The notes under the pieces are model-generated. The model did no database searches. It was given only the letters and a program-made list of their open reading frames with translations, and was not told the DNA's origin. The position numbers were made by a program, and so were the translations under genes. 64,000 bases of DNA from Escherichia phage Ptacy1496, in sequence record PQ863253.1, one strand, 5' to 3'. Shown one piece after another: positions 584 to 10,552 of the stretch (the stretch's first letter is position 1; every line of letters starts with the position of its first letter).

Positions 584-2563
584 ATGACTTTATTATCTCC
601 GGGCATTGAGCTCAAAGAAACTACGGTTCAAAGCACCGTGGTTAATAACTCTACTGGTACAGCAGCTTTGGCCGGTAAATTCCAGTGGGGTCCTGCTTTT
701 CAGATTAAACAGGTTACAAACGAAGTAGATTTAGTTAATACTTTTGGTCAACCTACAGCTGAAACTGCTGACTATTTTATGTCTGCAATGAATTTCTTAC
801 AATATGGAAATGATTTGCGAGTTGTGCGCGCTGTCGATAGAGATACCGCTAAAAACTCATCTCCGATTGCTGGTAATATTGAATACACAATTTCTACCCC
901 AGGTAGTAACTACGCGGTTGGAGATAAAATCACGGTCAAATATGTTTCAGAAGATGTTGAAACAGAAGGTAAAATTACCGAAGTAGATGCTGATGGAAAA
1001 ATTAAGAAAATTAATATTCCTACTGCAAAAATTATTGCTAAAGCTAAAGAAGTTGGCGAATACCCAACATTAGGTTCTAACTGGACTGCAGAAATTTCTT
1101 CATCTTCTTCCGGTTTAGCTGCAGTAATAACTCTTGGAAAAATTATTACTGATTCTGGTATTTTATTAGCTGAAATTGAAAATGCTGAAGCTGCTATGAC
1201 AGCGGTTGACTTTCAAGCAAATCTCGAAAAATACGGAATTCCAGGAGTAGTAGCTCTTTATCCAGGCGAATTAGGCGATAAAATTGAAATTGAAATCGTA
1301 TCTAAAGCTGACTATGCAAAAGGAGCTTCTGCATTACTCCCAATTTATCCGGGCGGTGGTACTCGCGCATCTACTGCTAAAGCAGTGTTTGGATATGGAC
1401 CACAAACTGATTCACAGTACGCTATTATAGTTCGTCGAAATGATGCTATTGTTCAAAGCGTTGTTCTTTCAACTAAGCGTGGTGAAAAAGATATTTACGA
1501 TAGTAACATCTATATCGATGACTTTTTCGCAAAAGGTGGTTCAGAATATATTTTTGCAACTGCACAAAACTGGCCAGAAGGATTCTCTGGAATTTTAACT
1601 CTGTCTGGTGGATTATCATCAAATGCTGAAGTAACAGCAGGAGATTTGATGGAAGCTTGGGACTTCTTTGCTGACCGTGAATCTGTTGACGTTCAGTTGT
1701 TTATTGCGGGTTCTTGTGCCGGTGAATCTTTAGAAACAGCATCTACTGTCCAAAAACACGTCGTTTCAATTGGAGATGCTCGCCAAGATTGCTTAGTATT
1801 GTGCTCACCACCGCGTGAAACTGTTGTTGGAATTCCTGTAACTCGTGCTGTTGATAACTTAGTCAATTGGAGAACCGCATCAGGTTCATACACTGATAAT
1901 AACTTTAATATCAGTTCAACCTATGCAGCAATTGATGGTAACTACAAGTATCAGTATGACAAATATAATGATGTGAATCGTTGGGTTCCATTAGCAGCTG
2001 ATATTGCTGGTTTGTGTGCAAGAACTGATAACGTTTCTCAGACTTGGATGTCTCCAGCTGGTTATAATCGTGGTCAGATTCTTAACGTTATTAAACTTGC
2101 TATTGAAACTCGCCAGGCGCAGCGCGACCGTTTATACCAAGAAGCTATCAACCCGGTAACCGGTACAGGTGGTGATGGTTACGTATTGTATGGTGATAAA
2201 ACAGCTACTTCTGTTCCTTCTCCATTTGATCGTATTAACGTTCGTCGTCTGTTTAATATGTTGAAAACGAATATCGGACGTAGTTCAAAATATCGTTTAT
2301 TCGAATTAAACAACGCGTTTACTCGTTCATCATTCCGCACAGAAACTGCCCAATACTTACAGGGAATTAAAGCTCTCGGTGGAATTTATGAATATCGTGT
2401 AGTTTGCGATACAACAAATAACACTCCGTCAGTAATTGATAGAAATGAGTTTGTTGCAACATTCTACATCCAACCGGCTCGTAGTATAAATTATATCCAA
2501 CTTAATTTCGTCGCAACTGCTACCGGTGCAGATTTCGATGAGTTAACTGGTCTTGCAGGTTAA
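584..2563 (+). CDS. 18: Tail sheath protein gp18
   Basis: 659 aa, same length as T4 gp18; ATG 584 preceded by AAGAGGA; late promoter TATAAATA upstream. Confidence 0.95.
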   Translation: MTLLSPGIELKETTVQSTVVNNSTGTAALAGKFQWGPAFQIKQVTNEVDLVNTFGQPTAETADYFMSAMNFLQYGNDLRVVRAVDRDTAKNSSPIAGNIEYTISTPGSNYAVGDKITVKYVSEDVETEGKITEVDADGKIKKINIPTAKIIAKAKEVGEYPTLGSNWTAEISSSSSGLAAVITLGKIITDSGILLAEIENAEAAMTAVDFQANLEKYGIPGVVALYPGELGDKIEIEIVSKADYAKGASALLPIYPGGGTRASTAKAVFGYGPQTDSQYAIIVRRNDAIVQSVVLSTKRGEKDIYDSNIYIDDFFAKGGSEYIFATAQNWPEGFSGILTLSGGLSSNAEVTAGDLMEAWDFFADRESVDVQLFIAGSCAGESLETASTVQKHVVSIGDARQDCLVLCSPPRETVVGIPVTRAVDNLVNWRTASGSYTDNNFNISSTYAAIDGNYKYQYDKYNDVNRWVPLAADIAGLCARTDNVSQTWMSPAGYNRGQILNVIKLAIETRQAQRDRLYQEAINPVTGTGGDGYVLYGDKTATSVPSPFDRINVRRLFNMLKTNIGRSSKYRLFELNNAFTRSSFRTETAQYLQGIKALGGIYEYRVVCDTTNNTPSVIDRNEFVATFYIQPARSINYIQLNFVATATGADFDELTGLAG

Positions 2564-2575
2564 TTGATTGATTGT

Positions 2576-2589
2576 GGGGCTTCGGCCCC
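2576..2589 (+). terminator. Stable UUCG-tetraloop hairpin after gene 18
   Basis: GGGGC-TTCG-GCCCC followed by TATTCTC. Confidence 0.6.
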
Positions 2590-2654
2590 TATTCTCGAGG
2601 AAACAAGTGATTATTTCTAAGTTTGTTACAATAAAACCAAGAAATCATTCAAAA

Positions 2655-3212
2655 ATGTGGTCGACAATTCTGGGATATAAAGTATCATATCATGATACAA
2701 TATCTGTTCCAATAGAATTAATGCCAAAGAATAGTAATAAAATAGTTGACGCTAAATGTGATTTGTGTGGTATTAAATTTAGTAGAAGCATTCAGCTTTT
2801 AAATAGAACACCCACGCATGCATGTAGAAAATGTAGCATTAAACAAGTTGCTATTAAAAATTCGGAAGTCCAATCTGGAATAAGTAGACCATGGCAAAGA
2901 GGCGATAAACATCCTCGATGGACTGGTAAAAGAAAAGAGTTTGCATTATATGCTAGTAGAGTTCATTCTATAACTAAGTCAGCTAAAATAAGAAAAATCT
3001 GGTCAAAATGGCCAAATGCTGATAAAATAGGAGTGTGTGGTGTAGAAGGTGCTTACCAACTTGATCATAAAGTATCTATCAAATATGGATTTGATAATTT
3101 AATTCCGCCAGAAATTATAGCAAGCGTAAAAAATTTAGAAATAATCACTTGGGAATCTAACCGAGAAAAGTCAAAAAGAAATAGCGTAGATCTTTGGGAT
3201 TTACTAGAATGA
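2655..3212 (+). CDS. Putative zinc-finger HNH homing endonuclease (free-standing, between 18 and 19)
   Basis: Two CxxC pairs (CDLCGIK, CRKCSIK) and HNH-like motif LDHKVSIKYGFDN...NLEIITWESNREKSK. Start uncertain: ORF opens at TTG 2568 inside the gene 18 terminator hairpin; GTG 2607 or ATG 2655 more plausible. Confidence 0.7.
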   Translation: MWSTILGYKVSYHDTISVPIELMPKNSNKIVDAKCDLCGIKFSRSIQLLNRTPTHACRKCSIKQVAIKNSEVQSGISRPWQRGDKHPRWTGKRKEFALYASRVHSITKSAKIRKIWSKWPNADKIGVCGVEGAYQLDHKVSIKYGFDNLIPPEIIASVKNLEIITWESNREKSKRNSVDLWDLLE

Positions 3213-3219
3213 TTCTAAA

Positions 3220-3237
3220 GGCCTGTTTCGACAGGCC
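3220..3237 (+). terminator. Hairpin after HNH gene
   Basis: GGCCTGT-TTCG-ACAGGCC. Confidence 0.55.
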
Positions 3238-3297
3238 ATATAAATACACTATATCCTTAATTCTTTAATTCTATATGCCCTAGGTTAAACATAGGGA

Positions 3298-3305
3298 TAT
3301 AAATA
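3298..3305 (+). promoter_or_regulatory. Late promoter TATAAATA upstream of gene 19
   Basis: Exact consensus 15 nt before ATG. Confidence 0.7.
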
Positions 3306-3319
3306 CTACAGAGGCTAAT

Positions 3320-3811
3320 ATGTTTGTAGATGATGTAACACGAGCGTTTGAATCTGGTGATTTTGCTCGACCTAACTTATTCCAAGTAGAAATTTCTTAT
3401 CTTGGACAAAATTTTACGTTTCAATGTAAAGCCACTGCTTTACCAGCTGGTATTGTAGAAAAAATTCCAGTCGGATTTATGAACCGTAAAATTAACGTAG
3501 CAGGCGATCGTACATTCGATGACTGGACTGTTACAGTAATGAACGATGAAGCTCATGATGCTCGCCAGAAGTTTGTTGATTGGCAAAGCATTGCTGCTGG
3601 TCAAGGAAACGAAATTACTGGTGGAAAACCTGCAGAGTATAAAAAGAGCGCTATTGTTCGTCAATATGCTCGTGATGCTAAAACAGTAACAAAAGAAATT
3701 GAAATTAAAGGTCTGTGGCCTACTAACGTGGGTGAACTTCAATTAGATTGGGATTCAAACAATGAAATCCAAACCTTTGAAGTAACTCTTGCTCTCGATT
3801 ATTGGGAATAA
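3320..3811 (+). CDS. 19: Tail tube protein gp19
   Basis: 163 aa, T4 gp19 length; late promoter TATAAATA at 3298-3305. Confidence 0.95.
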   Translation: MFVDDVTRAFESGDFARPNLFQVEISYLGQNFTFQCKATALPAGIVEKIPVGFMNRKINVAGDRTFDDWTVTVMNDEAHDARQKFVDWQSIAAGQGNEITGGKPAEYKKSAIVRQYARDAKTVTKEIEIKGLWPTNVGELQLDWDSNNEIQTFEVTLALDYWE

Positions 3812-3816
3812 AATGA

Positions 3817-3834
3817 ATGGGGAGAAATCCCCAT
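3817..3834 (+). terminator. GNRA-tetraloop hairpin after gene 19 (RNA stability element or weak terminator)
   Basis: ATGGGGA-GAAA-TCCCCAT, no strong U-run. Confidence 0.45.
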
Positions 3835-3843
3835 CCTGCTTAA

Positions 3844-5458
<1,615 letters not shown>

Positions 5459-5459
<1 letters not shown>

Positions 5460-5698
5460 TGGAAGGTTTAATTGAAGCTATTAAATCAAACGACCTCGTA
5501 GCCGCTCGTAAATTATTTGCTGAAGCCATGGCTGCAAGAACGACTGATTTAATTAAAGAAGAAAAAATCGCTATCGCTCGTAATTTCTTAATCGAAGGTG
5601 AAGAACCTGATGACGAGGATGATGACGAAGACGAAGATAGTGATGATAAAGACGACAAAAAAGACAAAGACTCTGACGAAGACGAGGATGATGAATAA
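5459..5698 (+). CDS. 67: Prohead core protein gp67 (acidic C-terminus)
   Basis: 79 aa, D/E-rich tail, position between 20 and 68. Confidence 0.9.
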
Positions 5699-7619: not shown

Positions 7620-9185
7620 ATGACTATCAAAACTAAAGCTGAACTTTTGAACAAATGGAAGCCATTACTGGAAGGTGAAGGTTTACCGGAAATTGCTAAT
7701 AGCAAACAAGCGATTATCGCTAAAATCTTTGAAAACCAGGAAAAAGATTTCCAGACAGCTCCGGAATATAAAGACGAAAAAATTGCTCAGGCATTCGGTT
7801 CTTTCTTAACAGAAGCTGAAATCGGTGGTGACCACGGTTACAATGCTACCAACATCGCCGCAGGTCAGACTTCTGGCGCAGTAACTCAGATTGGCCCAGC
7901 TGTTATGGGTATGGTACGTCGTGCTATTCCTAACCTGATTGCTTTCGATATTTGTGGTGTTCAGCCAATGAACAGCCCGACTGGCCAGGTATTCGCGCTG
8001 CGCGCAGTATATGGTAAAGATCCAATCGCTTCCGGCGCTAAAGAAGCATTCCACCCAATGTATGGTCCAGATGCAATGTTCTCTGGTCAGGGTGCTGCTA
8101 AGAAATTCGCTGCTTTGAAAGCAAGTGATACTCTTGAAGTCGGAACTATTTACACTCACTTCTTCCAGGAAACTGGTACAGTATATCTGCAAGCTACAGC
8201 AGCTAAACAAATTGATTCAGGCGCATCTGACGCAGACAAATTAGATGCTGAAATTAAGAAACAAATGGAAGCTGGTGTACTGGTAGAAATCGCTGAAGGT
8301 ATGGCTACTTCTATCGCTGAACTTCAGGAAGGTTTCAACGGTTCTACCGATAACCCATGGAATGAAATGGGCTTCCGTATCGATAAACAAGTTATCGAAG
8401 CTAAATCTCGTCAGCTGAAAGCTGCTTACTCTATTGAATTAGCACAAGACCTTCGCGCTGTTCACGGTATGGATGCTGATGCTGAACTGTCTGGTATTCT
8501 GGCTACCGAAATTATGCTGGAAATCAACCGTGAAGTTGTTGATTGGATTAACTACTCAGCTCAGGTTGGTAAATCTGGTATGACCCTGACTCCGGGTTCT
8601 AAAGCTGGTGTATTTGACTTCCAGGACCCAATCGATATTCGTGGTGCTCGCTGGGCAGGTGAATCCTTTAAAGCTCTGTTGTTCCAGATTGACAAAGAAG
8701 CAGTTGAAATTGCTCGTCAGACTGGTCGCGGCGAAGGTAACTTCATTATCGCTTCCCGTAACGTAGTTAACGTTCTGGCTTCAGTTGATACCGGCATTTC
8801 TTATGCTGCACAAGGTCTGGCTACTGGCTTTAACACTGATACTACCAAGTCAGTATTTGCTGGTGTTCTGGGTGGTAAATACCGTGTATATATCGACCAG
8901 TATGCTAAACAGGATTATTTCACTGTAGGTTATAAAGGTCCGAACGAAATGGATGCTGGTATTTACTACGCTCCATATGTAGCTCTGACTCCGCTGCGTG
9001 GTTCCGATCCGAAGAACTTCCAACCAGTAATGGGATTCAAAACTCGTTACGGTATCGGTATCAACCCATTTGCAGAATCCGCTGCTCAGGCTCCGGCTTC
9101 TCGCATCCAGAGCGGTATGCCTTCTATTCTGAATAGCCTTGGTAAAAACGCTTACTTCCGCCGTGTATATGTTAAAGGTATCTAA
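7620..9185 (+). CDS. 23: Major capsid protein gp23
   Basis: 521 aa, T4 gp23 length; followed by strong terminator hairpin. Confidence 0.97.
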   Translation: MTIKTKAELLNKWKPLLEGEGLPEIANSKQAIIAKIFENQEKDFQTAPEYKDEKIAQAFGSFLTEAEIGGDHGYNATNIAAGQTSGAVTQIGPAVMGMVRRAIPNLIAFDICGVQPMNSPTGQVFALRAVYGKDPIASGAKEAFHPMYGPDAMFSGQGAAKKFAALKASDTLEVGTIYTHFFQETGTVYLQATAAKQIDSGASDADKLDAEIKKQMEAGVLVEIAEGMATSIAELQEGFNGSTDNPWNEMGFRIDKQVIEAKSRQLKAAYSIELAQDLRAVHGMDADAELSGILATEIMLEINREVVDWINYSAQVGKSGMTLTPGSKAGVFDFQDPIDIRGARWAGESFKALLFQIDKEAVEIARQTGRGEGNFIIASRNVVNVLASVDTGISYAAQGLATGFNTDTTKSVFAGVLGGKYRVYIDQYAKQDYFTVGYKGPNEMDAGIYYAPYVALTPLRGSDPKNFQPVMGFKTRYGIGINPFAESAAQAPASRIQSGMPSILNSLGKNAYFRRVYVKGI

Positions 9186-9200
9186 TCTTTGACGATTTAA

Positions 9201-9229
9201 GGGACCTTCGGGTCCCTTTAGTTGTTTTT
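9201..9229 (+). terminator. Rho-independent terminator after gene 23
   Basis: GGGACC-TTCG-GGTCCC followed by TTTAGTTGTTTTT. Confidence 0.8.
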
Positions 9230-9233
9230 ATGG

Positions 9234-9241
9234 TATAAATA
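9234..9241 (+). promoter_or_regulatory. Late promoter TATAAATA upstream of gene 24
   Basis: Exact consensus just after gene 23 terminator. Confidence 0.7.
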
Positions 9242-9268
9242 AATCATATAAACTGAAAGGAAAGCGCA

Positions 9269-10552
9269 ATGGCTAAAATCAACGAACTTCTGCGCGAATC
9301 AACCACAACGAATAGCAACTCAATCGGTCGCCCAAATCTCGTTGCTTTGACTCGCGCTACCACTAAATTAATATATTCTGACATTGTAGCAACGCAAAGA
9401 ACTAATCAACCTGTTGCTGCTTTTTATGGTATCAAATACCTTAACCCAGACAATGAATTTACATTTAAAACTGGTGCTACTTATGCTGGCGAAGCTGGAT
9501 ATGTAGACCGAGAACAAATCACAGAATTAACAGAAGAGTCTAAATTAACTCTCAATAAGGGCGATTTATTCAAATATAATAATATCGTTTATAAAGTATT
9601 AGAAGATACACCATTTGCTGATATTGAAGAAAGCGATTTAGAATTAGCTCTTCAGATTGCAATTGTTCTTTTAAAGGTTCGTCTATTTTCTGACGCAGCG
9701 TCAACAAGCAAATTTGAAAGCTCTGATAGTGAAATTGCGGATGCTAGATTCCAGATTAATAAATGGCAAACCGCAGTTAAATCTCGTAAACTTAAAACTG
9801 GTATCACAGTTGAATTAGCACAAGATTTAGAAGCAAATGGATTCGATGCTCCTAATTTCTTGGAAGATTTGCTTGCAACTGAAATGGCAGATGAAATCAA
9901 TAAAGATATTCTGCAGTCTTTGATTACAGTGTCAAAACGCTATAAAGTTACAGGAATTACTGATACTGGATTCATCGATTTGAGTTATGCATCTGCACCT
10001 GAAGCTGGTCGTTCATTATACCGAATGGTATGTGAAATGGTTTCGCATATCCAAAAAGAATCAACTTATACAGCAACGTTCTGTGTTGCTTCAGCTCGTG
10101 CTGCTGCGATTCTTGCTGCATCAGGTTGGTTAAAACATAAACCAGAAGATGACAAATATCTTTCACAAAATGCCTACGGGTTCTTAGCTAATGGTTTACC
10201 GCTTTATTGCGATACCAACAGTCCATTAGATTATGTAATCGTTGGCGTAGTAGAAAATATTGGTGAAAAAGAAATTGTTGGATCAATTTTCTATGCTCCG
10301 TATACAGAAGGTCTTGACTTAGATGACCCTGAACATGTAGGTGCATTTAAAGTTGTAGTTGATCCAGAAAGTTTGCAGCCATCTATCGGTTTATTAGTTA
10401 GATATGCTTTATCTGCAAATCCTTACACTGTAGCAAAAGATGAAAAAGAAGCAAGAGTAATTGATGGTGGAGATATGGATAAAATGGCGGGTCGTTCAGA
10501 TTTGTCTGTTTTATTAGGTGTTAAGCTACCAAAAATTATCATTGATGAATAA
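9269..10552 (+). CDS. 24: Capsid vertex protein gp24
   Basis: 427 aa, gp23 paralog-like; late promoter at 9234-9241. Confidence 0.95.
   Translation: MAKINELLRESTTTNSNSIGRPNLVALTRATTKLIYSDIVATQRTNQPVAAFYGIKYLNPDNEFTFKTGATYAGEAGYVDREQITELTEESKLTLNKGDLFKYNNIVYKVLEDTPFADIEESDLELALQIAIVLLKVRLFSDAASTSKFESSDSEIADARFQINKWQTAVKSRKLKTGITVELAQDLEANGFDAPNFLEDLLATEMADEINKDILQSLITVSKRYKVTGITDTGFIDLSYASAPEAGRSLYRMVCEMVSHIQKESTYTATFCVASARAAAILAASGWLKHKPEDDKYLSQNAYGFLANGLPLYCDTNSPLDYVIVGVVENIGEKEIVGSIFYAPYTEGLDLDDPEHVGAFKVVVDPESLQPSIGLLVRYALSANPYTVAKDEKEARVIDGGDMDKMAGRSDLSVLLGVKLPKIIIDE

Follow-up and report, generated by a model that had tools for sequence, protein, structure and literature searches.

A stretch of 64,000 nucleotides from Escherichia phage Ptacy1496 (sequence record PQ863253.1), called the window in the following, was analysed around an open reading frame (ORF) that lies on the plus strand at positions 2607-3212, between the genes for the tail sheath (gene 18) and the tail tube (gene 19). 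Judged by its sequence and its distribution among phages, this ORF is probably a homing endonuclease gene of the free-standing kind, from an HNH-like (His-Me finger, 'HNN') family for which no curated model exists. The window is part of a Tequatrovirus (T4-like) genome; its first 24 kb match Tequatrovirus genomes end to end, with Escherichia phage vB_EcoM_G4507 as the closest match (98.3%). A preliminary description, made from the DNA letters and a list of reading frames, had placed an ORF between the sheath and tube genes and had taken T4 to carry no gene at this position. Both statements are correct. The flanking genes were identified by Pfam as gene 18 (584-2563, plus strand, 659 amino acids; Gp18_dom_I, Phage_sheath_1 and Phage_sheath_1C, E 1e-39 to 1e-15) and gene 19 (3320-3811, plus strand, 163 amino acids; Phage_T4_gp19, E 3e-16). 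The spacer between them is 756 bp long in the window, where it is occupied by the ORF ending at 3212, and is a geneless gap of 116 bp in T4.

The extent of the insertion was determined from an alignment of the window with the empty sites of T4, SH7, T2 and Ac3 and the occupied sites of T6 and RB7. The inserted cassette is 648 bp long (2564-3211, plus strand), consists of a hairpin, a Shine-Dalgarno sequence and the ORF, and replaces 8 bp (TACGGTGC) of the T4 spacer. Its left edge is the base right after the gene 18 stop codon, and its right edge lies just before a GGCCTGT-TTCG-ACAGGCC hairpin. The junctions are identical in the window, T6 and RB7, and the spacer is empty, with a length of 116 bp, in T4, T2, SH7 and Ac3. 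In base composition the cassette is distinct from its surroundings, with a G+C content of 0.32-0.33 versus 0.39-0.42 for gene 18; when set against both flanks, the values are 0.32 versus 0.38-0.39, and 0.18 versus 0.21-0.24 for the G+C content at third codon positions.

About 500 Tequatrovirus records with flanks at 95% identity or more were then compared; this count and those that follow are somewhat inflated by RefSeq/GenBank duplicates. The T6-type allele, which is the allele of the window, was found in 69 of these records and a second, RB3-type allele in 48, and the site is empty in the remaining three quarters or so, T4 and T2 included. This comparison of the 18-19 junction across T-even genomes, which the preliminary description had suggested, reveals an optional insert at a fixed site with sharp boundaries. 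The gene is not an identical, conserved component of all T-even phages, as T4 and T2 lack it. The exact boundaries of this optional insert give computational support to the earlier statement that the gene carries the hallmarks of a mobile free-standing homing endonuclease.

The history of the gene is decoupled from that of its neighbours. The proteins encoded by the ORF in the window and in RB7 are only 57% identical, although the flanks are 99-100% identical (gp18 99%, gp19 100%). The RB3-type and T6-type genes have the same junction, hairpin, Shine-Dalgarno sequence, first codons and last approximately 75 codons. Their ends and nuclease domain show a nucleotide identity of approximately 87-91% versus approximately 55% in the N-terminal half, which indicates module exchange; evidently, as the alignment of the two alleles suggests, the DNA-binding half has been swapped and the nuclease half kept. 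Between the Dhakaviruses UP19 and Bp7, identity is 96% for gp18 and 100% for gp19 but falls to 35% for the ORF. Across genera, identities are 66% between the ORFs of the window and UP19 (flanks 72% identical), 64% between those of RB7 and a Klebsiella phage, and 68% between those of Eco005 and a Winklervirus. By these identities, the relationships of the ORF disagree with those of the flanking genes, and no fewer than three allele lineages extend beyond a single genus.

One member of the family interrupts a gene. The protein Acj133p227 of Acinetobacter phage 133 (273 amino acids) has the same nuclease domain (hhalign probability 99.1, E 9e-19), and its gene sits inside rnlA, dividing the RNA ligase 1 gene into two ORFs that jointly cover the Pfam models RNA_lig_T4_1 and T4_Rnl1_C. 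At this locus (2070-4147 in phage 133) rnlA-A, rnlA-B and the 273-amino-acid gene are three slightly overlapping ORFs, an arrangement of 'genes in pieces'. A parallel is mobE in the nrdA gene of Aeromonas phage Aeh1, where a free-standing HNH gene splits an essential or conserved gene into two ORFs (PMC3045599). The two cases differ in the HNH family and in the target gene, and the window copy, being intergenic, splits nothing. As far as comparison of genomes can tell, mobility is thus supported by presence and absence, allelic replacement, incongruent relationships and gene invasion.

The protein is composed of two parts. The N-terminal half (residues 1 to approximately 90) is presumably a DNA-binding, Cys4 treble-clef-like zinc-finger domain, and the C-terminal half (residues approximately 109-195; 2931-3191, plus strand) is very likely a nuclease domain of the HNH (His-Me finger) type that has diverged beyond the reach of current profiles. 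The two CxxC pairs and the HNH-like motif of the preliminary description are both present. The former are C51/C54 and C73/C76 in the numbering of the 201-amino-acid protein (2757-2834, plus strand), assigned to a zinc finger by conservation and weak profile matches; the latter is D153-H154 ... N176 ... N185-R-x-K188 (3063-3170). In an alignment of 119 diverse relatives, D153, H154, N176 and N185 are the sole fully invariant columns, and C51, C54, C73, C76 and K188 are nearly invariant. The spacing N176-x8-N185, exactly 9, followed by R-x-K188, is the canonical HNH spacing. The canonical HNH motif reads 'N-L-x-x-L-C-x-x-C-H-x-x-K', and the window protein has an Asn at the last metal-binding position; this variant (H-N-N) is a known active form. 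All elements of the catalytic motif, i.e. the His general base (usually as D-H or H-H) where strand 1 ends, the structural Asn ahead of strand 2 and the metal-binding His/Asn some 9 residues further on, in the helix, are accordingly found in the protein.

An AlphaFold model of the protein has a mean predicted local distance difference test (pLDDT) score of 84 and a strand-strand-helix (beta-beta-alpha) arrangement at the motif, like that of solved HNH nucleases. In the model a beta strand carries D153-H154, the helix carries N185-R-x-K188, and N176 precedes the second strand. A Foldseek search of the Protein Data Bank (PDB) gave no match below E 0.78. Using hhalign, an SpCas9 HNH segment was aligned with the motif in register; this match is weak (E 0.005, probability 7%) and, as the SpCas9 sequence used was provisional, carries low weight. 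No match was obtained by hhalign with a provisional sequence of T4 endonuclease VII.

The absence of an HNH profile hit had been named beforehand as an outcome that would speak against the reading, and here the result is divided. None of the curated HNH profiles (Pfam HNH, HNH_2-5 and Endonuclease_7; NCBIfam) matches the window protein, for which Pfam returns sub-threshold zinc-finger noise only, because these libraries have no model for its family. Among the 119 relatives, 26 match the PHROG endonuclease VII (best 9e-9), 10 match an HNH endonuclease PHROG (4e-7), and 2 match Pfam HNH_4 weakly (E approximately 1e-3, below the gathering score). The Cys4 region has weak matches to the DUF4379 treble-clef zinc finger in Pfam and to zinc fingers in PDB. 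The matching of the isolated C-terminal domain to leucine-rich repeats (LRR) was discounted as spurious. A stretch 'IPPEIIGxIxNLQxLPWxxN' at positions 38-59 of this domain mimics an LRR unit and reaches E 1e-10 against Leptospira LRR proteins, and such mimicry, seen in the PDB profile search, is a trap for automated annotation.

Could the protein bind nucleic acid without cutting it? It would then be a zinc-finger DNA- or RNA-binding protein with a non-catalytic HNH-like region, serving as a regulator or structural accessory of late expression at 18/19. Such a role would agree with zinc-finger modules being the only database-significant sequence matches of the window protein, with its being missed by HNH profile libraries and with the Asn, not His, at the last metal-binding position. 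We nevertheless consider it very unlikely, since the only columns kept without exception in the 119 relatives (D-H, N, N) form an active-site pattern that is not degenerate, the modelled fold appears to match active HNH nucleases, and the Cas9 HNH motif is in register, if weakly and with a provisional sequence.

The interpretation as a homing endonuclease gene can be compared with known systems of T4-related phages. The T4 genes mobA-E are free-standing HNH genes (PMC2988022, PMC2790892), and the Mob enzymes have been described as nicking (PMC13096335). Like the Mob genes, the window gene is free-standing, lies in an intergenic spacer between conserved T-even genes, is optional among close relatives, and combines an HNH-type nuclease with a zinc-finger DNA-binding part. 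The Mob enzymes are thought to nick or cut a co-infecting genome lacking the cassette, which is followed by recombinational repair (PMC2988022, PMC2790892, PMC13096335), and the window protein may work likewise. Unlike in the Mob proteins, the zinc finger of the window protein is N-terminal (51-76) and the nuclease C-terminal (approximately 109-195), the Mob order being the reverse; furthermore, the window protein has no detectable similarity to Pfam HNH_3, and its last motif residue is Asn. With the domain order reversed and no HNH_3 match, the window protein does not show the N-terminal HNH_3 and C-terminal zinc finger that define MobA-E, and it is therefore not a Mob protein. I-HmuI and the small phage HNH nicking endonucleases (Gme HNH 4h9d, GVE2 HNH 5h0o, T5 SciA 9qgx) are among the closest known systems.

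A second comparison concerns the Hef family of homing endonucleases, which is experimentally proven and whose relatives have also been reported beside tail tube genes. The Hef-like F-LimVIII is, like the window gene, a free-standing homing gene of a T4-related phage, and it also resides between the sheath and tube genes, in Dickeya phage LIMEstone1 (PMC3296691). There it is a 596-amino-acid protein encoded in the sheath-tube spacer on the opposite strand (8129-9919). This spacer is consequently a landing site for at least two unrelated nuclease families. In addition, 6 of the 119 relatives of the window protein carry the DUF7487 module, which also occurs in F-LimVII and F-LimVIII; as judged from these domain matches, such sharing is what one would expect if homing endonucleases shuffle their modules. 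We give hardly any credence, however, to membership of the window protein in the Hef family. When F-LimVII and F-LimVIII of LIMEstone1 were used as representatives (U5 Hef was not among them), hhalign of the family gave a probability of <1%, and Hef-like membership was rejected. The nuclease part of both proteins matches models of the Vsr, DUF559 and MTES_1575 type, not HNH; F-LimVIII is encoded on the opposite strand and is three times longer; and only a DNA-binding module is common to some members.

The position of the gene relative to the sheath gene is nearly constant. In 13 of the 14 contexts sampled, the sheath gene immediately precedes the family member, namely in T6, RB7, UP19, Bp7, Eco005, Roth78, STP4-a, S16, CHI14, Mokit, AS-zj, Sinorhizobium phage phiM7 and a 112-kb metagenomic contig. 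Apart from the contig, these thirteen come from several phage subfamilies and include members of Tequatro-, Dhaka-, Gelderland- and Winklervirus, a Klebsiella phage, and phages of Acinetobacter, Aeromonas and Sinorhizobium. In phiM7 a gene other than the tube gene follows the ORF, which leaves the sheath gene's 3' end as the constant neighbour. The last approximately 45 sheath residues (…VIDRNEFVA..YIKPARSINYITLNFVA…) are conserved in all post-sheath contexts, and the peptide PARSINYI(T/Q)LNFVA is conserved as far as phiM7. Homing endonucleases typically exploit targets as conserved as the sheath C-terminal coding region.

Within this region a cluster of mostly synonymous substitutions relative to T4 was found at 2479-2524 (plus strand), in the gene 18 codons for PARSINYITLNF, PARSINYI(T/Q)LNFVA. 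In the last 81 nucleotides of gene 18, 14 of the 81 positions differ from T4, and neighbouring bins differ at 0-5%. The cluster would fit target-site variation or repeated co-conversion, and we infer from the alignment that it is either a scar of co-conversion or a candidate region for recognition or cleavage. The haplotypes of the patch are not strictly tied to the state of the site: empty T2 has the RB7 patch and empty Ac3 nearly the window patch. No target site can therefore be read from the cluster, and the patch was rejected as a cassette-specific marker, being common to T2 and Ac3. Inside the cluster, gene 18 residue approximately 639 (2497-2502) is Gln in the window, T6 and Ac3 and Thr in T4, T2, RB7 and most other genera; this change (INYIQLNF vs INYITLNF) involves 2-3 base changes in one codon.

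For expression, the surroundings of the ORF were scanned for the T4 late promoter box TATAAATA. A one-mismatch variant, TATAAATT, at 2485-2492 (plus strand) is a possible late promoter, inside gene 18 and 122 nucleotides upstream of the ORF start. It is missing from T4 and SH7 and present in empty-site T2 and Ac3; hence it is not specific to the insert and was rejected as a marker of the cassette. No TATAAATA box was found between the cassette hairpin at 2576-2589 and the GTG start codon in the window allele, while the alleles of CHI14, Bp7 and Eco005 have such a box directly upstream of their ATG. A late promoter of gene 18 is located at 548. From this arrangement we consider late expression most likely, by read-through of the cassette hairpin, with weak translation from the GTG. 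A hairpin sequestering the ribosome-binding site at the start codon was also considered and found unsupported, as the fold of 2556-2625 is no better than that of shuffled sequences (z 0.11).

Several of these results weigh against a homing endonuclease. The Pfam and NCBIfam scans of the window protein found no HNH match, and the family sequence profiles reached no solved HNH structure in PDB, only zinc fingers and the spurious LRR match. A promoter of its own is not evident in the window allele, and the substitution cluster in gene 18 does not follow the gene's presence or absence. The searchable literature yielded no experiment with a member of the family. Each of the 14 copies examined is intact, an absence of decay that would be unusual for a purely selfish element. 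Finally, the gene keeps its position even between phages that diverged very deeply, and it could also be an old resident that has been lost repeatedly.

Put as an explanation of its own, this last point describes a resident accessory nuclease, i.e. an old gene of the T4 superfamily at the sheath-tube junction that benefits the phage and is not an active homing element. Inheritance would be mainly vertical, with losses in many lineages and occasional exchange through ordinary recombination of the structural module, and the benefit might be exclusion of competitors, degradation of foreign DNA or the countering of a defence. Its occurrence at the same position even in the distant phages phiM7 (Sinorhizobium) and AS-zj (Aeromonas) would be accounted for, as would the strong purifying selection on intact copies and the late promoters of the CHI14, Bp7 and Eco005 alleles, which resemble those of ordinary late genes. 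We regard this explanation as unlikely, because alleles only 35-57% identical lie between flanks 96-100% identical within one genus, approximately three quarters of Tequatrovirus genomes are without the gene, the boundaries of the cassette are exact, and a relative interrupts rnlA. Moreover, benefit to the phage and mobility are compatible in homing endonuclease genes of T-even phages.

We thus return to the homing endonuclease as the preferred reading. For nuclease activity, the type of cleavage, the target site, the timing of expression and homing itself, we infer the following course of events. The gene would be transcribed late, from gene 18 late transcripts reading through the upstream hairpin, and translated at a low level from the GTG. 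The N-terminal Cys4 zinc-finger domain would bind a specific site on a co-infecting phage genome that lacks the cassette; the 3' end of the sheath gene, which is very conserved, is the most likely location of this site. The C-terminal beta-beta-alpha-metal domain, with a single HNH active site, would nick or cut nearby. In the active site, H154 is predicted to serve as the general base, with D153, N176 and N185 holding metal and loop in position. T4-type recombination-dependent repair would then copy the cassette, together with neighbouring markers, from the donor into the cut genome. A nick appears somewhat more likely than a double-strand break for the putative nuclease, by analogy, as its best structural matches are nicking enzymes and the Mob enzymes of T4 are described as nicking.

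The identity of the gene and its start codon were established as follows. The preliminary description had given a protein of about 190 amino acids and had left the start open between TTG 2568, GTG 2607 and ATG 2655. The true start is GTG 2607, and neither TTG 2568 nor ATG 2655 is retained; the product, ending at a TGA stop codon, has 201 amino acids and not about 190. Thirty homologues start with MIISKxV exactly at the position of this GTG, the residues encoded between 2607 and ATG 2655 are conserved among homologues, and the T6 record annotates the 201-amino-acid form. A Shine-Dalgarno sequence GAGG, read directly from the sequence at 2597-2600 (plus strand), lies 6 nucleotides before the GTG and is conserved in T6 and RB7. 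The first 20 residues have a pLDDT of 91-92 and lie within the confidently modelled fold, and a GTG start is also used in the T6, RB7, UP19, Roth78, STP4-a and S16 copies.

The ORF is no chance reading frame. The window protein matches phrog_5104 (E 7e-83), which PHROGs labels 'unknown function'; its best homologues reach E 1e-120; and the family comprises 6035 cluster representatives at 50% identity (E <= 0.001). The window and T6 copies differ by 9 synonymous and 2 non-synonymous codons, giving a ratio of non-synonymous to synonymous substitution rates (dN/dS) of 0.055. By this comparison the ORF is clearly a functional gene under purifying selection. At the protein level it is 98.9% identical to T6 ORF19.1 / T6ORF160 (AXN58201.1) at the same site, and all 119 relatives tested fall in phrog_5104. 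No paralogue was found elsewhere within the 64-kb window.

In public records nearly all members of the family are labelled 'hypothetical', as are the named homologues in the large protein collection. The name ORF19.1, the sole earlier name of the window gene, appears in the depositors' note on Acj133p227 ('some similarity to ORF19.1 of Enterobacteria phage T6'), and the ORF19.1 family as such has never before been named. One short homologue was named McrA by JGI, and other labels found are 'putative head morphogenesis protein', 'holin' and 'type II restriction endonuclease'. The gene is unannotated in the public records of RB7 (2348-2998) and RB10. In the S16 record (3601-4221) it is shortened to 106 amino acids through the choice of a downstream ATG; S16 was considered as a decayed copy and rejected, since the full GTG-start ORF of 206 amino acids is intact and identical to that of STP4-a. 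No characterisation was found in the searchable literature on ORF19.1, on homing endonucleases of the sheath/tube junction or on T6. For T6, Table 5 of Petrov et al. 2010 counts a single putative homing endonuclease gene of the class 'other HNH' (PMC2993671); this may be ORF19.1, but the table names no gene.

Homing endonuclease genes that are free-standing shape the survival of markers in T-even co-infection and are a source of site-specific nucleases. A gene of the ORF19.1 type is present in the classic phage T6 and in approximately one quarter of the sequenced Tequatrovirus genomes, and its recognition closes a gap in the annotation of thousands of phage proteins. It also leads one to expect a bias in how the tail sheath/tube region is inherited, both in crosses and in therapeutic phage cocktails, and it offers a compact putative enzyme of 201 amino acids, zinc finger plus HNH, with a target that is probably long and conserved. 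Elements of this kind are well known in T4-like phages, and the understanding of how they work is unchanged. Notable, on the evidence of the sequences compared, are an unannotated family of thousands, its unusual fidelity to one site across a phage superfamily, and an apparent exchange of DNA-binding modules.

More tentatively, and with clearly less confidence than for the individual gene, the approximately 6000 representatives might form a large unnamed HNH-like homing family, with the window gene as its type example, that tracks the sheath 3' end across the T4 superfamily and persists by swapping zinc-finger modules as targets drift. If so, the lack of decayed copies would mean that the nuclease also benefits the phage, for example by excluding competitors at the tail-gene module, and the 18/19 junction would be a natural system for studying the co-evolution of homing endonucleases and their targets.

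Two hairpins flank the ORF, and the preliminary description had assigned the upstream one to gene 18 and the downstream one to the ORF; this assignment has to be reversed. The upstream GGGGC-TTCG-GCCCC hairpin (2576-2589, plus strand; centroid fold), between the gene 18 stop codon and the ORF, is borne by the cassette. A hairpin is found between the sheath stop codon and the ORF in 12 of 12 occupied loci examined, and the Gelderlandvirus version combines the UUCG loop with another stem sequence (GGGCC-TTCG-GGCCC). A terminator scan made no call at 2576-2589, where no T-run follows the stem. The downstream GGCCTGT-TTCG-ACAGGCC hairpin (3220-3237, plus strand; -13.6 kcal/mol, z -4.8), outside the insert, is the ancestral post-gene-18 hairpin native to T4, as it occurs at the empty sites of T4, T2, SH7 and Ac3, where it is the same except for one loop base. 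Beyond it, two TATAAATA late promoter boxes at 3239-3246 and 3298-3305 (plus strand) serve gene 19; they are common to T4 and likewise outside the insert.

Downstream of gene 19, the essential portal gene (gene 20) of the window is broken by a 10-bp deletion with approximately 6 neighbouring substitutions at approximately 4148-4160, relative to T4 and T2 (T4 'AATAACTATGAAGTAGATAATGCAGTT' vs window 'AATACTGTTGAA----------TGCTTT'). This lesion results in overlapping ORFs at 3883-4212 (109 amino acids) and 4155-5459 (434 amino acids) instead of one gene of 524 amino acids. None of 515 phage records carries it (best identity 92.7%), and from this comparison it probably reflects either an error in sequencing or assembly or a mutation private to this phage. 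In the Dhakaviruses Bp7 (3706-4287) and vB_EcoM_005 (3684-4265), a second, unrelated HNH endonuclease gene lies between genes 19 and 20. The portal gene of Bp7 is annotated in two pieces (107 amino acids plus the rest; 4345-5567), with the break near the position of the gene 20 lesion of the window.

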